Assembly (NCBI GenBank): GCA_045605805.1
Contig: JAZUQR010000004.1
Location: 1-10,975 of the forward strand
Source: Alphaproteobacteria bacterium
GTDB lineage: Bacteria > Pseudomonadota > Alphaproteobacteria > CAAHEQ01 > UBA3637
Direction of reading: 5' to 3'
DNA: 10,975 bases
Part shown: positions 1 to 10,045 of the stretch, in pieces
How the letters are laid out: the number at the start of each line of letters is the position of its first letter
How positions within the stretch are numbered: position 1 is the first letter of the stretch
Notes under the pieces: generated by a model
The model's database searches: none
What the model was told of the DNA's origin: nothing
What the model saw: only the letters and a program-made list of their open reading frames with translations
Translations under genes and position numbers: made by a program

Positions 1-79
1 AAAAAACAAACAAAACAAATGAAAGGAATTAAAATGAACTGGAACATAGAACAAACCATTGAAGGCCGGCGTAAGGCAT
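1..79 (+). repeat. Exact 79-bp terminal direct repeat, left copy
   Basis: Positions 1-79 (aaaaaacaaacaaaacaaatgaaaggaatt...gaaggccggcgtaaggcat) are identical to 10897-10975 by base-by-base comparison. Confidence 0.98.
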
Positions 80-81
80 GA
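34..81 (+). CDS. Putative 15-aa upstream ORF / leader peptide MNWNIEQTIEGRRKA
   Basis: GAAAGGA Shine-Dalgarno at 21-27, ATG at 34, TGA at 79-81. Its initiation region (20-38) matches that of the pilin (137-155) at 18/19 nt. Translation is unproven. Confidence 0.35.
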   Translation: MNWNIEQTIEGRRKA

Positions 82-150
82 AATGATGTTTTTGTTGTTC
101 CAATCCATTGAGTATTCTTCTCAAAAATAAAAAAACTGAAAGGAAATAAA

Positions 151-516
151 ATGAAAAAAAATGAATCCGGCCGTTCTATGGTTGAAATGTTGGGCGTTCT
201 CGCCATTATCGGTGTGTTGTCCGTCGGTGGTATCGCCGGCTATACATTGGCTATGAATAAATATCGTCAAGCCGAAGTTTCTAACGCTATTGCTTTGACA
301 TATGTGGAAGCTGTGGCTCAAGGGAAGCAGGTAGCCTATGCTGACGTGGCAAACGGCGTTACAGTTCCAGCTGGATTGTCTGGTTATATTACCAATATTC
401 AGGTTGACGAAGCTGGTGGCGTGACGATTACAGGTAAGGAAGCTTCTTTCAAGTGTGAAGACGTCGACTGGTGTAAAGACGGTGTGACGGCTGCTGTAAA
501 CGCTATAGTTTCATAA
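151..516 (+). CDS. Type IV pilin-like protein (class III signal peptide), 121 aa
   Basis: Short leader MKKNESG, then RSMVEMLGVLAIIGVLSVGGIAGY: Gly at -1, Glu at +5 and a hydrophobic helix. C-terminal Cys pair (CEDVDWC) resembles a pilin D-region. SD GAAAGGA at 138-144 and its own terminator. Confidence 0.88.
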   Translation: MKKNESGRSMVEMLGVLAIIGVLSVGGIAGYTLAMNKYRQAEVSNAIALTYVEAVAQGKQVAYADVANGVTVPAGLSGYITNIQVDEAGGVTITGKEASFKCEDVDWCKDGVTAAVNAIVS

Positions 517-529
517 GTTGCTTCATCAC

Positions 530-561
530 AAAAAAACTCCCTTTAACGAGGGAGTTTTTTT
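530..561. terminator. Bidirectional intrinsic terminator
   Basis: Perfect 13-bp inverted repeat aaaaaaactccct-(ttaacg)-agggagttttttt with a U-tract on both strands, lying between the convergent pilin and SUKH genes. Confidence 0.92.
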
Positions 562-1000
562 ATGGGGTTTCGTTCAGCAAGTGGTACAGCATATCTTCAA
601 AACGGGGCAAGGCCACCACGGGCAAAAGGGCGTTTCTGTCCAACAGCTCGTAGGTGTTATTTTGGGCATTATAGCAGATAAGCCCTTCACTGCACCGCCC
701 CAAAACCAAGCGTTTGGCAAAAAAGCGTGCTGTGGCATATTGTTTGTGATAGCCCATTAAAGAGGGGTGGTCAAACACTGTGCCAGCCCGTTCATGCGAA
801 GAGCAGGAAAAAAACTCTAAATCCCCACAGGCAAAACCATCGGTCAATGTTAAAAAATTAAGATAGCCCCGAGGAATGCGGACTCGCCCTGCCTTGACCA
901 ACGCCACAGAAGCACTTTGGGCTTGGTTTAATCCAACGGCCGGAAAAAATACCGTCTCCTTTGTTTTTAATTGGTTCACAAGCGTTTGCAACAAAATCAT
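560..1000 (-). CDS. SMI1/KNR4 (SUKH superfamily, YrhA-like) immunity-type protein, 146 aa
   Basis: IPRGYLNFLTLTDG fits the SUKH signature lP-x-Y-x-x-FL-x-x-x-(N/D)G, followed by LEFF, LVLG, ICYN..TYELLD and FEDML elements. GGAGG SD and a 4-nt ATGA overlap with the upstream HNH-like gene. Confidence 0.75.
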   Translation of the reverse strand: MILLQTLVNQLKTKETVFFPAVGLNQAQSASVALVKAGRVRIPRGYLNFLTLTDGFACGDLEFFSCSSHERAGTVFDHPSLMGYHKQYATARFFAKRLVLGRCSEGLICYNAQNNTYELLDRNALLPVVALPRFEDMLYHLLNETP

Positions 1001-1632
1001 TTGTTCCCTCCTTTGGGATTGAAGTGAAGCACTTGTGTGGCCATTTCGTTTGTACCATAAGGCACATAGACGGCCGTTTTTGGCACAGGAACATATAATA
1101 TGGGCGGCGTTATCACCCCTGCATCCGACAAAATCTGTTGGTTCAAAAAATGGTGGATTTCTTCGTGAAACGGATAATGCGGGATAAGAACAAAGTTTTC
1201 TTCACTTATGGTCCCCCCATAGGCCAGAGGGTATTTCAAATGAAGGGTCCAATTGATGGGGAGCTTGCCTTGAAAAAGGGCTTTGATTTGGTCTTCATCC
1301 AAACCGGCCACACGCAACGCATCAAAATGATTGGCCGGCAGATGTTGTAAAAAAACAGCCATTTGCTTTTTCGTTTGAACTGCTTCGGATTTGAAATCGT
1401 GTGTATAGTGTGCAATGCGCTTTAAGGCCACCAAATCCATGCCATACAGGTTTGTTTTTTGAAATTGATTTAACCAATACGCATCATTATTGGGGGCATC
1501 CAAATTATCCAATGCAAAATCCATTTCTTGGTCGTTTGGGTTGGGTGGAGCATGGGCCACTTGGGTTAAAGAATCCCAATTTTCAAAAAGCTGTGCGCCA
1601 TCTAATTGAAAATCATCCTTTTGTGGCGACAT
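997..1632 (-). CDS. HNH (beta-beta-alpha-Me) toxin-like protein with acidic N-terminal extension, possibly catalytically degenerate, 211 aa
   Basis: AGLDEDQIKALFQGKLPINWTLHLKYPLAYGGTISEENFVLIPHYPFHEEIH parallels the polymorphic-toxin HNH pattern GL..DI....G..P.G(Y/W).VHH..PL..GG.N...NLVLI...P.H as recalled. AGGAGA SD at 1641-1646. Confidence 0.68.
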   Translation of the reverse strand: MSPQKDDFQLDGAQLFENWDSLTQVAHAPPNPNDQEMDFALDNLDAPNNDAYWLNQFQKTNLYGMDLVALKRIAHYTHDFKSEAVQTKKQMAVFLQHLPANHFDALRVAGLDEDQIKALFQGKLPINWTLHLKYPLAYGGTISEENFVLIPHYPFHEEIHHFLNQQILSDAGVITPPILYVPVPKTAVYVPYGTNEMATQVLHFNPKGGNK

Positions 1633-1647
1633 GGTTGTTTTCTCCTA

Positions 1648-3864
1648 TTACATTGGCGTTGATGGTGGTGGCAATGCCGATTGATTTTGTCCTTCTTCCA
1701 ATGCTTGATTATTCATTTGTTGCATTTGTTGTTGCTCTGCCTGCCATTCGGCCATACGTTCTTGGGCAATCCAATACGGTACATTGGGTGAAGACCCCAT
1801 GGCAATTTTTTTCTTCATATCCGGTTCCATATACCAACGGGGGGCATCGGCCAAAATCGGCCGGCTCATATGGCTTTGCACCAACACATATTGTTGTAAG
1901 GGGTTCAAGCTCATAATTTCAGAAACCTGAATCACAGAAGATTGTTGCATTTGACGGGATACATTTTGTGTGAACATACTGCCTTGCGGGGCGTTCATTC
2001 CTTCTTGACGAGAGGTGCTTTTCACCTCTATGGTTGTATTGCCCACCATTTCCACAAAGCGTTTAGCCGTTTGTTCGTTGTTTTGTGACAACACAATTTT
2101 AACGGCTGTTGTAGAAATCAATGTTTCTAAATCGTCTTTACCATATTTACCCGAGATTTGCCCCAAGTCCTGCCCAATCAACAGATATGACACTTTTTGG
2201 CCACGACCCACGGCCGGCCCATTCACAACAGCCGACAACTTTGGCATTTGCGGAAATTCGTCTAACACAAACAACACAGGGAACGGGCCTGCCTTTTGGC
2301 CGGCACTGTTCACATGCCCAGGTGGATTGGCAATTAAATAGTTGCTCATCAATTCAACAAAGATACCCGTAATCACGCTTAAAGCCGTTGCGTCCACCAA
2401 ATCCACAGACAAATAAACCGTCACTGGTTGCATTTTGCCTGTATTGGGATCGGCAATACCACGCAAATCGCTGAAAGTAAAATCACTTTTTTTGGTACGG
2501 GCAATCACCGCAGCGTTTTTGAAAATACTGATGCCCGCAAAGGCGGTGGACAGCACAGAACCTCGCTCTTTATCCGGTGTGTTGCCCAATTGGCTTAACT
2601 CGGTGACAGCACGGCGGGCATAGCCAAAACGATTCGCTTCCGCAACGGCCGCATCTAACACATCTTTCATGGGGTCGGCCATCATGGCCATTTGATCGCC
2701 TTCGTCCGAACGCCTTTTAATATCAGCCGCCACTTTCATGCTCATATCTGTCCACCAATCCAAAATCATGGCAATACATGGTTCACACCCATACCAACTG
2801 GGCGGCAAGCCGTCCCACATACCAACGGGGGCATAGTTCGCCAAAGTCAATGTGCCACTTTTAAGTGCATTCAAGGCCATACGGGCACCAACATCTTGCA
2901 TATCCATATAGTAGGTTTCCAAAATGCGAGCATCTTCTTGGTCAAAAGAACCCTCTTGCAACTTTGTGACAAAATAATCGTTGGCTCTGGCTCGTTCGCA
3001 TTTAGAGGCGATAAAGTGCAACAAGCCCGCCATAGCATTACGGCCCGCATTGGCCCAGTGTGGGTCTTGTCCACCCGTCGCCTCAGGCACCAAAATCTTG
3101 TTCATAGAGTCAATATACATATCTCGGGCAGGCCCCAAGGGAGGCAAACTTTCAGGGGACAGCGGATTCCAGCTTGGGTAAAAGATATTTTTTTCCGGTT
3201 CGTCTGCTTTGCCCCAATTGATGATATAAACCGGCCCCAAGCTGGCCCGATAGGCCGATGTATTAAAACACAATTCGGGCTTTGGGTCATTGATAATAAG
3301 GCTAACGCCATCCGAGGCAAAAATTGTTGGAACAACAACGCCAACTGTTTTACCGGTACCAGGCGGCGCACATACCAACACAGCCAATGTTTCGGCCAAT
3401 TTTAACAGATGCCCCTTAAACTTGCCCAAAACCGTACAGATACCTTTATCAATGCCAATTTGTGACATTTGCCTTATGTCATCCAAAGTGGCCATACGCC
3501 CTTCACCAAAGATGTTTGGCATATTCTTATATGGGTTTTTGATAATCCCTCGTGCAATGATACCAAACATTAAAACAAACGGCACAACAGGAACCAAGTA
3601 GGCCACAGAAAATGTCACACGGGCATCTGTAAAATAGTTCCACCATTTACCAACGATTGAAAATAAATAAAGTGGATTCATGACGGCACGCTTCAAAAAT
3701 ATTATCCCTTGTTTGAAAGATTCTTGGTCAAGGCCTTTCATACACCATACATATATCGGCATTGCCAACAAAAGTGTGACATACCATACCAGTAAGGCCA
3801 CGATAAATGTTTTCATAATATAAAAACCAAACTTTCTTTGTTCGGCATACATACGATCAACCAT
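1648..3864 (-). CDS. virD4: Type IV secretion coupling protein, VirD4/TraG family, 738 aa
   Basis: Two N-terminal hydrophobic segments, Walker A CAPPGTGKT, IINDPKPEL, WNPL, DPHW, KSDFTFSDLR, Walker B LFVLDEFPQMPKL, GRGQKV..LIGQDLGQI..KYG. GGGAG SD. Confidence 0.93.
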   Translation of the reverse strand: MVDRMYAEQRKFGFYIMKTFIVALLVWYVTLLLAMPIYVWCMKGLDQESFKQGIIFLKRAVMNPLYLFSIVGKWWNYFTDARVTFSVAYLVPVVPFVLMFGIIARGIIKNPYKNMPNIFGEGRMATLDDIRQMSQIGIDKGICTVLGKFKGHLLKLAETLAVLVCAPPGTGKTVGVVVPTIFASDGVSLIINDPKPELCFNTSAYRASLGPVYIINWGKADEPEKNIFYPSWNPLSPESLPPLGPARDMYIDSMNKILVPEATGGQDPHWANAGRNAMAGLLHFIASKCERARANDYFVTKLQEGSFDQEDARILETYYMDMQDVGARMALNALKSGTLTLANYAPVGMWDGLPPSWYGCEPCIAMILDWWTDMSMKVAADIKRRSDEGDQMAMMADPMKDVLDAAVAEANRFGYARRAVTELSQLGNTPDKERGSVLSTAFAGISIFKNAAVIARTKKSDFTFSDLRGIADPNTGKMQPVTVYLSVDLVDATALSVITGIFVELMSNYLIANPPGHVNSAGQKAGPFPVLFVLDEFPQMPKLSAVVNGPAVGRGQKVSYLLIGQDLGQISGKYGKDDLETLISTTAVKIVLSQNNEQTAKRFVEMVGNTTIEVKSTSRQEGMNAPQGSMFTQNVSRQMQQSSVIQVSEIMSLNPLQQYVLVQSHMSRPILADAPRWYMEPDMKKKIAMGSSPNVPYWIAQERMAEWQAEQQQMQQMNNQALEEGQNQSALPPPSTPM

Positions 3865-3865
3865 G

Positions 3866-5014
3866 TTATTCTCCCTTTAATAATTGTTTTAATGTGTCAA
3901 TTTGGGCAACAGACAAAGGACCTGTTTCTTTTATCAATTCGGCTGTTGTTGGGATTTCTTCCGTTCCCCCCACATCTGTGCGTGATACTGTCACTTGCAT
4001 TTCTTTCCATATGCGCAACATTTCTTCGGCATTGATGATATTGCCTTTTTGTTCAATCATAAAAGGTTGTACAGGAATATCGGAAAAATCAGGTGCAATT
4101 TTTTCTTCAATCTCTTTGACACTTTGAAGTAATTCATAAACAGGAGACACACGATGGTCTACCTCGGAAAACCACAAAGGAGCTTCCCCATTAAAAGGTT
4201 CTTCTTCTCCTAACCAATCACCCGATGCTTTATCCACATACACAACAAAAATCCTGTCTGAACCAGCTGCCACAAAATCAATTTGTTGAACGGATGTTTT
4301 AACATTCTGAATCAATTGATAGCCGGCATTTTCAAACAAAGCGGGCACATCCTCCACAACTGGTTCACGCACAGGGATTTCAATATCTTCCAAGGGGATG
4401 TTTTCAAAATCCGCTTCAATATCCGGTTCTGTTGGGACAGGGGATATTGGCTGTCTGTTTGCAGGCATTTGAAAGGTATCCAAAGGCATATTGGGTTGAA
4501 AAACAGAAGCGGGTTCTGATGGTTCAATGGAAGCCATACTTCCTTGGGCATTGGATTGTCTGGAAGTGGATAAAGCGACAGGGCGTTTTGGTGTGGACTT
4601 TTTGATCTCTTTATTAGATACAGGCGGTGGTGGCGGGGCCAAAATAAGACCTGTTTTCTTCTTGTGTTTTGAAGAATGTTTTTTTGTTTTCTTTGTGAAT
4701 AATGAATGAAAAAAGTGAATAACAGTTTTGATTATTTTTTTTACAGTTTTGCGCCAACGGACCTTTGTGCAAAGATGCCACAAATAAAGAAAACACGGCA
4801 CAGAAAACAAAAGCACAATCAAAAAAATCCAATCGCTTTTTGCGTTCAACATCCATCCGGATTCAAACTCTTTGATAATAAACAACCAGGAATGACGAGA
4901 AAATAAGTGAAAACGCCAATTACTGTATAAAAAACCGCGCAGCCACCAACCAAAGAAAATGACTGCGACAATCAATCCGACTAATAAGTTTCTGCGCCAT
5001 TCTTTTTTTTGCAT
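3866..5014 (-). CDS. Membrane-anchored protein: 2 TM helices, basic/Pro-rich linker, C-terminal NERD-like PD-(D/E)xK-fold domain, 382 aa
   Basis: Hydrophobic segments at about aa 10-30 and 63-80, a Lys-rich then PPPPP linker, and C-terminal GYQLIQNV..QIDFVAAGSDRIFVVYVDK.SG....W..SPV resembling NERD (QIDH...IFVIETK..SG...NP). AAGGA SD. The CDS call is solid; the domain call is moderate. Confidence 0.6.
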   Translation of the reverse strand: MQKKEWRRNLLVGLIVAVIFFGWWLRGFLYSNWRFHLFSRHSWLFIIKEFESGWMLNAKSDWIFLIVLLFSVPCFLYLWHLCTKVRWRKTVKKIIKTVIHFFHSLFTKKTKKHSSKHKKKTGLILAPPPPPVSNKEIKKSTPKRPVALSTSRQSNAQGSMASIEPSEPASVFQPNMPLDTFQMPANRQPISPVPTEPDIEADFENIPLEDIEIPVREPVVEDVPALFENAGYQLIQNVKTSVQQIDFVAAGSDRIFVVYVDKASGDWLGEEEPFNGEAPLWFSEVDHRVSPVYELLQSVKEIEEKIAPDFSDIPVQPFMIEQKGNIINAEEMLRIWKEMQVTVSRTDVGGTEEIPTTAELIKETGPLSVAQIDTLKQLLKGE

Positions 5015-5044
5015 GACAAATCCTTATCTTTTATTGTTTGATTC

Positions 5045-5073
5045 ATTATACAAAAAACAAAAATGTTTTTCTA
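5045..5073 (-). promoter_or_regulatory. Putative sigma70-type promoter of the NERD-like/virD4/HNH/SUKH operon
   Basis: Minus strand TAGAAA (5073-5068), 17-nt spacer, perfect TATAAT (5050-5045), about 30 nt upstream of the ATG at 5014. Confidence 0.45.
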
Positions 5074-5102
5074 GCAAAAAAAGCGGACTTTTGGTTTTTT
5101 TC

Positions 5103-5381
5103 TTAAATATGTTGTAAAACAAGATTGGGATTAAAATCAACACCCATCGCTTCATTTGCTTTTTCGTATTTATTCAACACAAATCTGAAATAGGTTAAAA
5201 CGAACAAGCGTGTGGCTGATGATAATCCAGATTGGCCTTTGGAAGCATCAATTTTTGAACACAATTCATGAATGGTTAGGCCTTCTCTGGCGCATATATC
5301 TGATAAAGAAATCCAAGTTTCACGATCCAATCGCATACTTGTTCTGCGTCCATTCACGATAACATTTTTACAAACTAACAT
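5103..5381 (-). CDS. Ribbon-helix-helix (RHH_4-type) DNA-binding protein, 92 aa
   Basis: KNVIVNGRRTSMRLD..TW..L.DIC.REGLTI.ELC..ID......LSSA.R.FVL.YF is the typical alphaproteobacterial RHH_4 pattern. Start moved to ATG 5381 because AGGAGA lies just upstream. Confidence 0.88.
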   Translation of the reverse strand: MLVCKNVIVNGRRTSMRLDRETWISLSDICAREGLTIHELCSKIDASKGQSGLSSATRLFVLTYFRFVLNKYEKANEAMGVDFNPNLVLQHI

Positions 5382-5487
5382 TTGTTTCTCCTTTCCTTTT
5401 AATAAAAAATACATTATACTTATGGGTAGTGAAAAAACGAATTGCAACCTATAAGTGTATTATTTTTTTAAGGACACAACTTATAAT

Positions 5488-6036
5488 ATGAAAAAACAAG
5501 AGAAAAAAAAGATTTTGCATACTTGCGATTTTCCAAATTGTACCGAAGGGGCAGAGTTTCGGGCACCAAAAGACAGGACTTTGCGTTCTTATTATTGGTT
5601 TTGTCTGAAACATGTACAAGAATACAATAAAAAATGGGATTTTTTGGCGGGTTTGTCGGCCGAACAAATTGAGGCTCAATTGCAAAATGATGTGACTTGG
5701 CAACGTCCAACATGGAAGTTGGGGATGGGTGGATCAGCCAAAATTGTACATGGAAAAGTCAGTGATAAGTTTCACTTTTTTGATGAATCGCAACTTGGGA
5801 TGAGCGGACAATACAATCCACCACCCACAGAAATGCGTTATTCAAAAAAAATTCAAGATGCTGTTTTGTTTATGCAGTTGGAACAGCCGCTATCACTTGA
5901 AAAAGTAAAAGCACAATATAAAAAATTGGCCAAAATCTATCATCCCGATATTGCCAAACAAGATGCCTCGCTCTTTCAAAAATTGACCAACAGTTATACC
6001 TCTCTTGTGGCGTTTTTAGAACGGGGTGAAGAATGA
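5488..6036 (+). CDS. Alphaproteobacterial-type J-domain (DnaJ-class) co-chaperone
   Basis: N-terminal CDFPNC...GEF-like/RAPK...YWFCLKHVQEYNKKWDF...WQRPTW region and a C-terminal J domain with YHPD. ATG 5488 is preferred over GTG 5455, but the start is uncertain. Confidence 0.88.
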   Translation: MKKQEKKKILHTCDFPNCTEGAEFRAPKDRTLRSYYWFCLKHVQEYNKKWDFLAGLSAEQIEAQLQNDVTWQRPTWKLGMGGSAKIVHGKVSDKFHFFDESQLGMSGQYNPPPTEMRYSKKIQDAVLFMQLEQPLSLEKVKAQYKKLAKIYHPDIAKQDASLFQKLTNSYTSLVAFLERGEE

Positions 6037-7073: not shown

Positions 7074-8092
7074 ATACTTTGTGGCATCGTAGAAAAAAGA
7101 TTTTTTGTCAAAACAAACTGGCTGTATGGAGCTTGTGGATATTTTTATTTTTGTTTTGCGTATCACTTTTTGCCCCGTTTCTTGCCAATGACAAACCGTT
7201 ATTGATACGCTATGAAAACAACTTTTATTTTCCTTTTTTGCAAGATATTACCGATGAAGAATTGGGAGGAGATTTACCCACTTTTGCCGACTATACAGAT
7301 CCCTTCACAAAAAAACAAATCCATCAAAAGGGATGGATGATTCTGCCTTTGATTCCCTATCATGCCAACACGGTGGACTATTTTTCCAAAAATCCTTTTC
7401 CATTGCCACCAAGTAAAGACCATTGGTTGGGAACAGATGACCAAGGGCGTGATTTGTTGGCCCGATTATTATACAGTCTGCGTCTTTCACTGTCTTTTGG
7501 ATTGATACTCACTTTGGTTGCTTCGGTCATCGGTTTAATCATAGGGGCGGTGCAAGGTTATTTTGGGGGTAAAACTGATTTAGTTATTGGGCGTTTGATA
7601 GAGATTTGGTCCAGCCTGCCACAGTTATTTATTTTAATTATATTAGCGGGCTTTTTCAAAGCAACCTTTTTTTCTTTGCTGATAATTATGGTGTTGTTCA
7701 GTTGGCCCACATTGACCACCGTTGTGCGTGCCGAGTTTTTACGCATTCGTAATTTAGATTATATTCGTGTGGCCAAAGTATTAGGTGCAAGCGATATCAA
7801 CATTATGTTTCGCCATATTTTACCCAATGCTTTGATTGCCACCACAACTTATATGCCATTTATCTTGTCTGGGGCCATTGTAGCCTTATCTGCATTAGAT
7901 TTTTTGGGATTAGGACTTCCCCCAGGCACCCCCAGTTTGGGCGAATTGATTCGTCAGGCAAAAGAAAACCTAAACAGCCCGTGGATTGGTTTCAGTGTTT
8001 TGATTTTAATGACAATTTTGCTGGCCTCTCTTTTATTGATTGGCGAGGGTATCCGATCAGCTTTTAACCCCCATAGTAAGGAGGAAAAATGA
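7070..8092 (+). CDS. yejE: Peptide/microcin C ABC transporter permease, YejE-like
   Basis: SLFAPFLANDKPL..Y...FYFP, ADYTDP, HWLGTDDQGRDLLARL.Y, GAVQGYFGG..D, VRAEFLR.RNLDY, FRHILPNA, LDFLGLGLPPG.PSLGEL. ATGA-coupled to yejB. Confidence 0.9.
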   Translation: MNTLWHRRKKIFCQNKLAVWSLWIFLFLFCVSLFAPFLANDKPLLIRYENNFYFPFLQDITDEELGGDLPTFADYTDPFTKKQIHQKGWMILPLIPYHANTVDYFSKNPFPLPPSKDHWLGTDDQGRDLLARLLYSLRLSLSFGLILTLVASVIGLIIGAVQGYFGGKTDLVIGRLIEIWSSLPQLFILIILAGFFKATFFSLLIIMVLFSWPTLTTVVRAEFLRIRNLDYIRVAKVLGASDINIMFRHILPNALIATTTYMPFILSGAIVALSALDFLGLGLPPGTPSLGELIRQAKENLNSPWIGFSVLILMTILLASLLLIGEGIRSAFNPHSKEEK

Positions 8093-9462
8093 GCCTGCTT
8101 TCCATCCAAAATTTGACAGTTCGTTTGAAAAATATCACGCCTGTGGAACAAGCCTCACTTGTGGTGGAAAAAGGTAAATGTGTGGCGCTGATTGGCCCCA
8201 GCGGTTGTGGCAAAACAACTTTGGCTCGTTCCATTTTGAAATTACAGGATAACACCGTTTTAACAGGCAAGATTTTGTTTCATAACACCAATTTGTTGGA
8301 TTTGTCTGAAAAAGAATTATTAAACATTCGGGGTGGCAAAATTGCCATGATTTTTCAAGAGCCGATGACAGCCCTCAATCCGCTTCATCCGGTTGGCAAA
8401 CAAATTATGGAAAGTTTGGTTTTACATAAGAACAATCCCACCAAAGCGCATATAGAAGGCCTGTTAAAACAAGTTGGATTAAAAAACACAAAACGCATTT
8501 TGAAAAGCTATCCACATCAGCTTTCGGGCGGAGAAAGACAGCGCATCGTAATTGCGATGGCCTTGGCTGGTAATCCCGAACTTTTAATTGCAGACGAACC
8601 CACAACAGCATTGGATTCTGTCACACAAAAACAGATTTTAGCTTTATTAAAACAGCTTCAAAAAGAATTGGATTTGGCCATTTTGTTCATCACACATGAC
8701 ATTGCCGTTGTGCGCCAAATAGCAGATAAAGTCTATATGATGGCGGCCGGCAAAGTTCTAACGGATAAATTGCCGCAGGATGAGCCCTTTTCTGCCCCCA
8801 CACAGATATCACCATCATCCCCTTGTGTGTTAGATGTTCAAGGGTTGGGTATCAGCTATGGGCAACATCAGGTTGTGAAAGATTTTTCGCTTACGGTGAA
8901 ACAAGGCGAAACGGTGGCGCTGGTCGGGCCAAGCGGATGCGGCAAAAGTTCCATCGCCCATGCTTTGGTTCGTTTAGTTCCAGCCACTGGAAAAGTTTAT
9001 CTTGACGGGCAAGATTTTTTTGCATTGAAAGGCAAATCCCTTCAACAAGCCCGATCCAAAATACAAATGGTTTTTCAAGATCCTTTTTCTTCGCTGAATC
9101 CCCGTTGGATGATAGAAGATATTCTTTTGGAAGGGGCCAAAATCCATAAAATCAAAAACAGCCAAACCTTGTTATCTGAAACTTTGCAAAAAGTTCATCT
9201 GAATGCGGACATTTTGCACCGCTATCCGCATGAATTATCTGGCGGTCAGCGGGTTCGTGTGGCTTTGGCACGAGCCTTGATGTTAAATCCAAACCTGTTG
9301 ATTTTGGATGAAATTACCACAGCATTAGATATTCATACACAGGCAAAAATTATCCACTTGTTAAAAGAGTTGCAAGCAAAACAAGGCCTTGCGTATATAT
9401 TTATCACACATGACGAGAGAGCCTTGAAAGCCCTTGCACATCGGCTTATTTTGCTAACCTAA
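8089..9462 (+). CDS. yejF: Fused dual-ATPase ABC subunit, YejF-like, 457 aa
   Basis: Two NBDs: GPSGCGKT / LSGGERQR / LLIADEPT / FITHD and GPSGCGKS / LSGGQRVR / LLILDEIT / FITHD. ATGA-coupled to yejE. Confidence 0.88.
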   Translation: MSLLSIQNLTVRLKNITPVEQASLVVEKGKCVALIGPSGCGKTTLARSILKLQDNTVLTGKILFHNTNLLDLSEKELLNIRGGKIAMIFQEPMTALNPLHPVGKQIMESLVLHKNNPTKAHIEGLLKQVGLKNTKRILKSYPHQLSGGERQRIVIAMALAGNPELLIADEPTTALDSVTQKQILALLKQLQKELDLAILFITHDIAVVRQIADKVYMMAAGKVLTDKLPQDEPFSAPTQISPSSPCVLDVQGLGISYGQHQVVKDFSLTVKQGETVALVGPSGCGKSSIAHALVRLVPATGKVYLDGQDFFALKGKSLQQARSKIQMVFQDPFSSLNPRWMIEDILLEGAKIHKIKNSQTLLSETLQKVHLNADILHRYPHELSGGQRVRVALARALMLNPNLLILDEITTALDIHTQAKIIHLLKELQAKQGLAYIFITHDERALKALAHRLILLT

Positions 9463-10045
9463 ACTCTTTCAAATCGTGATCAATACCGTTCAACACAGCT
9501 CGTTTGTTGCTTCCCATATATGTTTTAACGGAATTACCGTTTTTTATGGCAATAGCAGGCCAACCTCTGACTTGATATAACCGCACCAATAAATCCCGTT
9601 GTTCTGCAATTTCTTCCTTCAAATGTTTGTTGGCCAAGCAAGCATCAAAGTCTTTGTTTAGCATACCCAACGATTGTGTATATTGCAATATCAAAAAATC
9701 AATAGTCTTGCTGTTGATGATTTTGTCTTGATTTTTGTAAAGCCAATTCATCATGCGATGGGCTTTATCGTCTGGTAAGCATCGCATCAACATAGCGGCT
9801 TTCATTGACTTTTCGTCCGTCACCACATCCACCATTTTAATCAATGCTTGTCCCTTATTGGCATATTTTTTCAACAGCTCGGGGAAAATTGTTTGATGAA
9901 AGTCCTTACAATGCGGACAGGTGATAGAGGTAAAAACATACATTTCTGTTTTTGCAGGTTTGCCATAGGTGCGTAAATCTGTTATTGGTCTGGCCTGAAC
10001 CGAAAAAGCACTTAAAAAAAGCATCCCTAACAAAAACAATCTCAT
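9446..10045 (-). CDS. DsbA-family thiol-disulfide oxidoreductase, exported, 199 aa
   Basis: Signal peptide ending VQA, SITCPHCKDFH active site, second Cys pair (MRCL...FDACL), cis-Pro loop RGWP, AGGAGA SD. Confidence 0.88.
   Translation of the reverse strand: MRLFLLGMLFLSAFSVQARPITDLRTYGKPAKTEMYVFTSITCPHCKDFHQTIFPELLKKYANKGQALIKMVDVVTDEKSMKAAMLMRCLPDDKAHRMMNWLYKNQDKIINSKTIDFLILQYTQSLGMLNKDFDACLANKHLKEEIAEQRDLLVRLYQVRGWPAIAIKNGNSVKTYMGSNKRAVLNGIDHDLKEFRLAK

Follow-up and report, generated by a model that had tools for sequence, protein, structure and literature searches.

A VirD4 operon pairing a probable HNH nuclease toxin with a predicted SUKH-like immunity protein in a lineage of gut Alphaproteobacteria

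Antibacterial type IV secretion systems (T4SSs) are documented mainly in Xanthomonadales, with effectors that share one recognition domain, a pattern from which the lineage described here appears to depart. Among described cases, TfdA of Stenotrophomonas maltophilia with its immunity protein 20840 comes closest. According to its report (PMC11253643), TfdA is a GHH (HNH-superfamily) DNase delivered by a VirB/VirD4 T4SS and encoded adjacent to its immunity gene, and it is toxic in Escherichia coli, where its immunity protein rescues the cells. For the antibacterial effectors of the Xanthomonadales systems (X-Tfes), two further reports (PMC8740702, PMC6536674) describe recruitment by the type IV coupling protein (T4CP) through XVIPCD, and effector and immunity genes arranged as bicistrons; no other recognition domain has been described for effectors of antibacterial T4SSs. 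We analysed a 10,975-bp stretch of DNA (hereafter the window) that is the entire contig JAZUQR010000004.1 (C4) of a 1.21-Mb alphaproteobacterial genome (GCA_045605805.1; 31 contigs, 98.85% complete). It carries a four-gene operon encoding, in transcription order, a membrane protein with a NERD-like domain (P0001), a VirD4-type coupling protein (P0002), an HNH toxin-like protein (P0003) and a SUKH-like predicted immunity protein (P0004). Our preferred reading, to which we give a probability of roughly 0.55, is that this is the coupling-protein operon of a single scattered T4SS, which supplies a dedicated nuclease effector and its immunity protein and also encodes a membrane protein particular to the lineage.

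The likeness to TfdA lies in an HNH-superfamily nuclease encoded beside an immunity gene, delivery having been demonstrated for TfdA and being presumed for P0003. Since the TfdA nuclease and its immunity protein are published, the statement in the original prediction that no described system with this architecture is known was too strong. The two proteins nevertheless differ in build and setting. TfdA is 899 aa long, with an N-terminal nuclease and a C-terminal XVIPCD-type domain, and its gene lies outside the virD4 operon, occurs in 77% of strains and is thought to have been acquired horizontally; P0003, of 211 aa, carries its nuclease on the C-terminal side, has no XVIPCD, and is encoded directly behind virD4 throughout the lineage. 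The X-Tfe bicistrons are matched by the P0003/P0004 pair, but unlike the Xanthomonadales systems (X-T4SSs) this genome has no XVIPCD, its T4SS genes are scattered rather than gathered in one cluster, and its predicted immunity protein is cytoplasmic and SUKH-like. X-T4SS immunity proteins are periplasmic lipoproteins. With the polymorphic toxins (Zhang et al. 2012, PMC3482391), which in their classical form appear, according to that survey, not to use T4SSs, the pair shares a homologous HNH C-terminal module followed by a SUKH gene; unlike them, P0003/P0004 is a conserved pair without a long trafficking region, a cassette array or paralogues. What is new here is that the genes for effector and immunity protein are hard-wired to virD4, that XVIPCD is lacking, that the membrane partner is NERD-like and that the toxin family has no model of its own, and no published description of this operon was found in the literature searched, which did not cover subscription journals.

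The four open reading frames (ORFs) are co-oriented on the minus strand between positions 560 and 5014 in the ORF list. The gap between P0001 and P0002 is 1 nt and that between P0002 and P0003 is 15 nt, P0003 and P0004 overlap by 4 nt (ATGA), and Shine–Dalgarno-like motifs precede all four starts in the sequence (AAGGA, GGGAG, AGGAG and AGGAGG); the ORF list and the sequence agree with the layout originally given, down to a ribosome-binding site for each gene. That the four genes are a real unit is indicated by the order kept in relatives rather than by the window alone. The proposed terminator also held up on refolding, with a folding energy of -21.6 kcal/mol (z = -6.8) that none of 200 shuffles equalled in stability; it had escaped the consensus scan and was recognised by eye, and with its flanking A-run and T-run it could work in both directions. 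The proposed promoter fared less well: it is the top scorer in positions 1 to 5600 (10/12 in the consensus scan), but the nine promoter-like sites of this region are no excess over the shuffle mean of 11.3, and it stands as a candidate only. As had been noted from the letters, no virB or relaxase gene is found among the annotated genes of the window.

P0003 comprises an acidic, disordered leader (residues 1–45), an HNH domain at about 55–190 and a short basic tail. Six residues, H131, K133, P135, N146, H156 and H160, never vary among 23 orthologues and fall in HNH order. Of 151 aligned sequences of wider relatives, 137 retain H131, 144 N146 and 127 H156, and the motif P..H.K.P...GG..N..P[YF]H is conserved in 137–144. 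The AlphaFold2 (AF2) model (predicted local distance difference test, pLDDT, 83) places two strands (128–132 and 147–151) and a helix (152–167) in a beta-beta-alpha unit spanning 128–167. Foldseek ranks Cas8-HNH and the DNases of colicin E9/E7 and pyocin highest for it, with 8ydb_J leading at E 0.062. VIA returned 17 chains with Z ≥ 2, all of them weak, led by 8w1p_G (Z 4.7, root-mean-square deviation (rmsd) 2.9, 83 residues) and including ColE7 and ColE9 (Z 3.4 each); at least 14 of the 17 carry HNH domains.

Curated models scarcely see this domain. P0003 matches no Pfam or NCBIfam family at all, its 23 orthologues give no HNH match at E ≤ 1, and PF01844 matches are weak (19.7–22 bits; cut-off 21.4) and confined to 6 of the 40 wider relatives scanned; in a PDB profile search with the P0003 alignment, the sole match to the motif is Cas8-HNH at E 0.88. 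The strongest support for P0003 as an HNH nuclease is homology to toxin domains. Searching with a profile built from the family brought up 605 representative proteins at E ≤ 1e-3 (385 at E ≤ 1e-10), of which 150 were listed and 40 scanned against Pfam for their domain architecture; in 9 of these 40 the P0003-type domain is the C-terminal module of a trafficking-domain protein. The partners are LXG (P0118), WXG100 plus PT-TG (P0116), PT-TG (P0098), PT-HINT (P0068), RHS (P0109), MuF_C (P0106), Portal_Mu (P0079) and Hcp (P0058). Because its profile homologues thus end LXG, Rhs, PT-HINT, MuF and Hcp toxins, P0003 is read from its sequence as a short, stand-alone member of an unmodelled HNH toxin-domain family. 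The invariant motif, the mostly HNH fold matches and the homologous C-terminal domains of polymorphic toxins together bear out the HNH toxin-like protein of the original prediction.

Outside the domain, 22 of the 23 orthologues carry a net negative charge over their first 45 residues (median -8) and 19 a net positive one over their last 30, and either the acidic leader or the basic tail may act as a secretion signal. A regular expression for the leader motif picked out P0003 alone in the source genome, its four looser matches lying in stop-interrupted frames or unrelated contexts. None of the four operon proteins has a paralogue there at E < 0.3, and among the PHROGs P0003 met just two unnamed phrogs, at E > 1e-3.

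P0004 matches the NCBIfam YrhA family (NF038335) at 9.4e-11 with 41.8 bits, below the cut-off of 55. Its orthologues (n = 20, E ≤ 1) match SMI1_KNR4 in 11 cases, SUKH_6 in 10 and SUKH_5 in 6, all under the respective cut-offs; relatives carry the source name 'YrhA family protein', and 2 of 109 have a precomputed PF09346 or PF14568. A PDB profile search with the P0004 alignment gave chance-level matches to cytochrome oxidase only. Residues 45–211 of P0003 were then modelled together with P0004, in three runs and beside three controls, from our own alignments. Each run gave the pair an interaction prediction score from aligned errors (ipSAE) of 0.86, whereas the highest-scoring of the three controls stood at 0.02; partner pLDDT was at least 91, and at least 97% of contacts were shared between runs. 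Solved complexes attain the score mark applied in 58 of 80 cases, mismatched pairs in 2 of 110. On P0003 the predicted interface takes in residues 123–132, 135–137, 151–154, 157 and 160–161, including N127, H131 and H160, and on P0004 the invariant R71 and E105, E105 contacting H131. P0004 is thus predicted to fit as an inhibitor that caps the active site of P0003. Both the SUKH partner proposed at the outset and its pairing with the HNH protein gain from these results, the one through sub-threshold SUKH/YrhA matches and the other through predicted binding over the HNH active site.

The coupling protein itself is well assigned. P0002 matches PF02534 (2.4e-54, 185.4 bits against a cut-off of 20.1), TraG-D_C (7.7e-24, 84.5 bits) and TrwB_AAD_bind (2.9e-19, 69.7 bits), in agreement with its first identification as VirD4, and its translation, read by eye, contains a Walker A motif (GTGKT), a Walker B-like stretch (VLFVLDEF) and hydrophobic N-terminal segments. 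All NCBIfam equivalogs score far under their cut-offs (best CD1115, 141 against 250), and P0002 is therefore placed as a divergent member of the T4CP family. The closest plasmid T4CPs, at 32–33% identity, sit in canonical virB8-9-10-11-virD4 clusters on sphingomonad megaplasmids.

P0002 is the only T4CP matched in the source genome, which has exactly one VirB4. The latter is encoded on contig C27, together with a 105-aa candidate virB3 and a 654-aa VirB6-like ORF (both without a Pfam match and named by position only), with virB8, virB9, virB10 and virB11, and with a second, weaker VirB8-like ORF (18.2 bits against a Pfam cut-off of 23.2). The C-terminus of VirB9 (552 aa) resembles SPOR, with 20.7 bits where the threshold is 21, and VirB10, of 2153 aa, begins with an ASH domain and bears seven Bflower_2 (5-fold beta-flower, lectin-like) repeats. 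Downstream of virB11 come dUTPase and SH3 genes and no virD4. Contig C10 adds three tandem tblastn matches to the 654-aa VirB6-like ORF at 31–40% identity. The expectation of a T4SS encoded elsewhere was thus correct, while the view of VirD4 as a stand-alone orphan gives way to that of the sole T4CP of a single scattered, vertically inherited chromosomal virB system. Two side observations concern these components: the tandem matches on C10 recall the VirB6 expansions of Rickettsiales, and a surface-exposed, sugar-binding VirB10 would be unusual.

VirD4 and VirB4 orthologues are co-distributed, being present in all 24 genomes of the family and in three others (G026, G033 and G040) and absent from the other 13 class-level relatives. 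In one related locus (L061), a virB11 with 75% identity to that of the source genome is located some 1.2 kb upstream of P0001, beyond the DnaJ-domain and RHH_4 genes, an arrangement in which an earlier linkage of virB11 and virD4 may survive. Five relaxase families (PF03432, PF08751, PF03389, PF07514 and PF01076; other families were not searched) gave no match in the source genome at E ≤ 0.1, so that the relaxase partner expected of conjugative DNA transfer is missing there for these families, and XVIPCD (PF20410) likewise gave none at E ≤ 0.1. The rvh system of Rickettsiales is a chromosomal P-type T4SS of reduced genomes, laid out in separate islets, with extra VirB6-/VirB8-like copies and with virD4 after virB11. 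The present system resembles it, by analogy, in its scattered chromosomal genes and its extra VirB6-/VirB8-like copies; unlike in rvh, virD4 stands in an operon of its own with three lineage-specific genes and not behind virB11.

Synteny across relatives carries most of the argument for the operon. In a set of 41 genomes, VirD4 orthologues occur at 56–79% identity in all 24 of the family, which span 5 genera, and in one further family; two further genomes have more distant T4CPs, and 13 class-level relatives have none. At the 25 orthologous loci (L011–L035), P0001 is present in 24, P0003 in 22 and P0004 in 21, and the misses fall at loci cut by a contig end, except that of P0004 in L024. A pattern scan based on the P0003 alignment retrieved 55 species loci, where a contig scan with P0003 alone had found no relative; P0001 is present at 48 of them, VirD4 at 54 and P0004 at 51, in constant order. 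These 55 loci overlap in species with the 41 genomes, and the two counts are not independent. Nearly all are from metagenome-assembled genomes (MAGs) of Alphaproteobacteria from goat, yak, sheep, buffalo, rabbit and human gut; two labelled Lactobacillales are probably mislabelled. The gene order persists across genera at 25–60% identity (48–55 of 55 loci), and on the evidence of these sequences the operon is ancient and vertically inherited in a gut/rumen lineage of Alphaproteobacteria, conceivably the RF32 group of GTDB. The four-gene order that had been read from a single stretch is therefore conserved in both sets of loci.

P0001 is the least familiar of the four proteins. Its model (AF2 pLDDT 78) has hydrophobic helices at 3–33 and 59–84, a basic helix at 87–106, a disordered Pro/Lys-rich linker of ~110 residues (about 107–215) and a folded cytoplasmic domain at 220–363. 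The Pfam NERD match (PF08378) is marginal, its 23.6 bits just clearing the cut-off of 22.1; among 22 orthologues, NERD is recognised at E ≤ 0.1 in 7, and Atlas feature matches are mostly to NERD clusters. The best structural match of residues 220–363 is Upx (Z 8.4, rmsd 4.0, 118 aligned), followed by AF1548 (7.9), Cdn1 (7.7), NucS (7.6), Can2 (7.4), FokI (6.2) and Hjc (5.3), all modest scores, and Foldseek gave SfsA (2.2e-3) and NucS (4.2e-3), with no row at E ≤ 1e-3. We take the C-terminal domain, on the model, to be a divergent NERD domain of PD-(D/E)xK fold; the marginal Pfam match, the model topology and the fold matches all favour the NERD-like membrane protein first suggested. Positions assigned by eye against the model strands put D in about 16 of 22 orthologues in the D245 column and an invariant D at 261, followed by a variable residue (K262; K, R, D, E, T, S or Q). 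An acidic block, D261..GDWL..EE.FN.E.PLWFSE..HR.SP, is invariant. The P0001 family has 82 members, all close and from the same type of MAGs.

A membrane-anchored partner of a coupling protein has a functional parallel. In Legionella, DotL works with DotM and with the adaptors IcmS, IcmW and LvgA, and the cytoplasmic domain of DotM recognises acidic effector signals. The topology of P0001 and the acidic leader of P0003 are comparable, as a functional analogy only; unlike DotM, P0001 has a PD-(D/E)xK/NERD-like domain, and no sequence or fold similarity between the two was found.

These observations allow us to sketch how the operon may work. P0003 and P0004 would be produced by coupled translation, and P0004 would cap the HNH active site, as the predicted complex suggests, so that the producer's own DNA is protected. 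The leader and/or the basic tail of P0003 might then dock on VirD4, possibly aided by the NERD-like domain of P0001, which would serve as a membrane-tethered adaptor. VirD4 would strip off P0004 and feed the toxin into the VirB channel, and the DNA of a contacted cell would be cut. Since the immunity gene has been retained, the target would most likely be a bacterium, another member of the gut community.

Several points weigh against this reading. The secretion of P0003, its binding by VirD4 and the binding of P0001 to either protein are steps that we infer, and the co-transcription of the four genes is argued from their spacing. For P0003, no Foldseek row reaches E ≤ 1e-3, the HNH nucleases at the top included, and no VIA score exceeds Z 4.7. 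XVIPCD is found neither in P0003 nor in its orthologues. The P0003/P0004 score can be partly a memory of solved nuclease–immunity complexes, and our own alignments were used. The canonical PD-(D/E)xK residues of P0001 are not conserved. P0003 and P0004 are single-copy and lineage-wide, with the domain kept in 55 species loci, whereas classical polymorphic toxins vary between strains. T4CP-independent T4SSs exist, and because some T4SSs work without a T4CP, the partnership of VirD4 and VirB is drawn from their co-occurrence.

A bolder version, which we consider unlikely, makes the operon a hard-wired cartridge in which the T4CP, a new class of membrane-tethered T4CP receptor (P0001), and a DNase effector with its immunity protein co-evolve and are plugged into the scattered T4SS with its lectin-like VirB10 repeats. 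Sister genera, which bear on it, carry a second VirD4 paralogue: at L097 (contig C6 of G024) this protein, with 37% identity to P0002, is encoded in housekeeping surroundings (uvrA, dnaG, rpoD, RNase D), 2 nt behind the gene for a 354-aa pentapeptide-repeat protein, and the two genes may be a second module of T4CP plus cargo. If the cartridge and this second module are real, cargo would be chosen by swapping T4CP paralogues and not by a shared signal, and these gut Alphaproteobacteria of 1 Mb could be contact-dependent killers or epibionts that degrade the DNA of their neighbours.

The same architecture might instead be aimed at eukaryotes, either gut protists or cells of the host, the SUKH protein shielding the producer before export (cis-immunity); we regard this as unlikely. 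Cis-protection by T4SS effector immunity proteins is published (PMC10933484). The 1.21-Mb genome and scattered virB genes, as in obligate host-associated Alphaproteobacteria, would suit such a target, as would a P0003/P0004 pair that is conserved and not polymorphic and a VirB10 whose seven lectin-like beta-flower repeats suggest attachment to glycan surfaces. The toxin domain, on the other hand, has its homologues in proteins of the LXG, Rhs and Hcp kinds, weapons typically turned on other bacteria, and SUKH partners are said to be typical of bacterial toxin–immunity pairs, as Zhang and colleagues reportedly found.

Next comes the possibility, quite unlikely in our view, that P0003 and P0004 are a self-contained toxin–antitoxin or addiction-like pair, or a toxin exported in some other way, next to virD4 through old synteny and unrelated to P0001. 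It would explain why the binding of P0003 to P0004 is the sole predicted interaction and why no XVIPCD was found, and the RHH_4 and DnaJ-domain neighbours are likewise conserved without an obvious link to secretion. All four genes are, however, closely spaced and coupled in translation, and the operon order is kept in 48–55 of 55 loci, against 19 of 45 for RHH_4 adjacency. The conserved leader and tail of P0003 outside the toxin domain also speak against this pair being independent of VirD4, and a Pfam scan that included the orthologues found no other export domain on P0003.

Very improbable is a DNA-moving T4SS module in which the HNH protein nicks in lieu of a relaxase, the NERD-like protein handles DNA and the SUKH protein restrains the nuclease. 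Two nuclease-fold proteins do flank a T4CP, T4CPs are related to DNA translocases, and the five relaxase families are missing from a genome that is 98.9% complete. Yet polymorphic toxins use domains of this HNH family to kill, the active site is completely covered by the inhibitor in the predicted complex, the catalytic PD-(D/E)xK residues of P0001 are not conserved, and we know of no HNH relaxase. A decayed integrative and conjugative element (ICE) or plasmid remnant, or an anti-phage defence island with a VirD4-like ATPase, is hardly tenable and was rejected on the distribution across relatives: virD4 does lie apart from virB amid housekeeping genes and has a weak PADLOC mad8 match (5.9e-5), but the operon is present in all 24 family genomes in the same order with identities that track VirB4, the nearest plasmid T4CPs are distant and belong to canonical clusters, the window holds no integrase, relaxase or repeat boundary, and P0001, P0003 and P0004 are without a PADLOC match.

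If the preferred reading of a T4SS operon with its own nuclease effector is true, T4SS toxins would be recognised in a second way, independent of the one already described. The reading would also give a name and a function to an HNH toxin family of 605 representative clusters that reaches into type VI and type VII secretion system, Rhs and phage MuF toxins, and it would provide a first functional clue to how common, uncultured gut bacteria with genomes of ~1 Mb interact with their neighbours. The P0003/P0004 pair is small and readily testable in E. coli.

Table 1. Coordinates of the operon, its putative signals, its neighbours in the window and related features on other contigs and loci
Feature	Position	Strand	Remarks
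P0001	3866-5014	-	382 aa; two-helix inner-membrane protein with NERD-like cytoplasmic domain
P0002	1648-3864	-	738 aa; VirD4/TraG-type type IV coupling protein
P0003	997-1632	-	211 aa; HNH (beta-beta-alpha-Me) nuclease toxin-like
P0004	560-1000	-	146 aa; SUKH/SMI1-KNR4-like (YrhA family); predicted immunity protein of P0003; cytoplasmic
Candidate sigma-70-type promoter	5045-5073	-	TAGAAA, 17 nt, TATAAT; upstream of P0001
Intrinsic terminator hairpin	about 530-561	-	A-run before, T-run after
RHH_4 (ribbon-helix-helix) gene	5103-5447	-	PF13467 1.6e-17; co-oriented, just upstream of P0001
DnaJ-domain gene	5455-6036	+	divergent from RHH_4 gene
Pilin-like ORF	151-516	+	121 aa; convergent; PF07963 0.0053 (weak N-terminal methylation motif), PRK10574 7.9e-5
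yejF-like ABC ATPase gene	8089-9462	+	457 aa; two ABC domains
DsbA-like gene	9446-10045		convergent with yejF-like gene
VirB10 gene	C27:76642-83100 (L010:8639-15100)	-	TrbI domain confined to 1875-2072
Tandem VirB6-like matches	C10:88759-91044
virB11 of a related locus	L061:438-1403
Second VirD4 paralogue with pentapeptide-repeat gene	L097:8298-11515		G024 contig C6

The operon is flanked in the window by pilin-like, RHH_4, DnaJ-domain, yejBEF-like ABC transporter, DsbA-like and Bax1-I genes. The RHH_4 gene is adjacent and co-oriented within 400 nt in the 19 of 45 assessable related loci mentioned above, at 60–87% identity, and is a frequent conserved neighbour whose membership of the unit is uncertain; the DnaJ-domain gene is present in 26 of 55. 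Both are far better conserved than the operon genes (RHH_4 at 60–95% identity, the DnaJ-domain gene at 36–79%). The pilin-like gene has a relative in 9 of the 55 related loci only, and on this count a link to a type IV pilus, the alternative machine into which the operon had been proposed to plug, was rejected. Two larger ATPases of the type II secretion/type IV pilus type are encoded on contig C27. The yejF-like protein falls short of the YejF model (529 positions), with 451 bits where the cut-off is 834, and the 3′ end of its gene overlaps that of the convergent DsbA-like gene by 17 nt.

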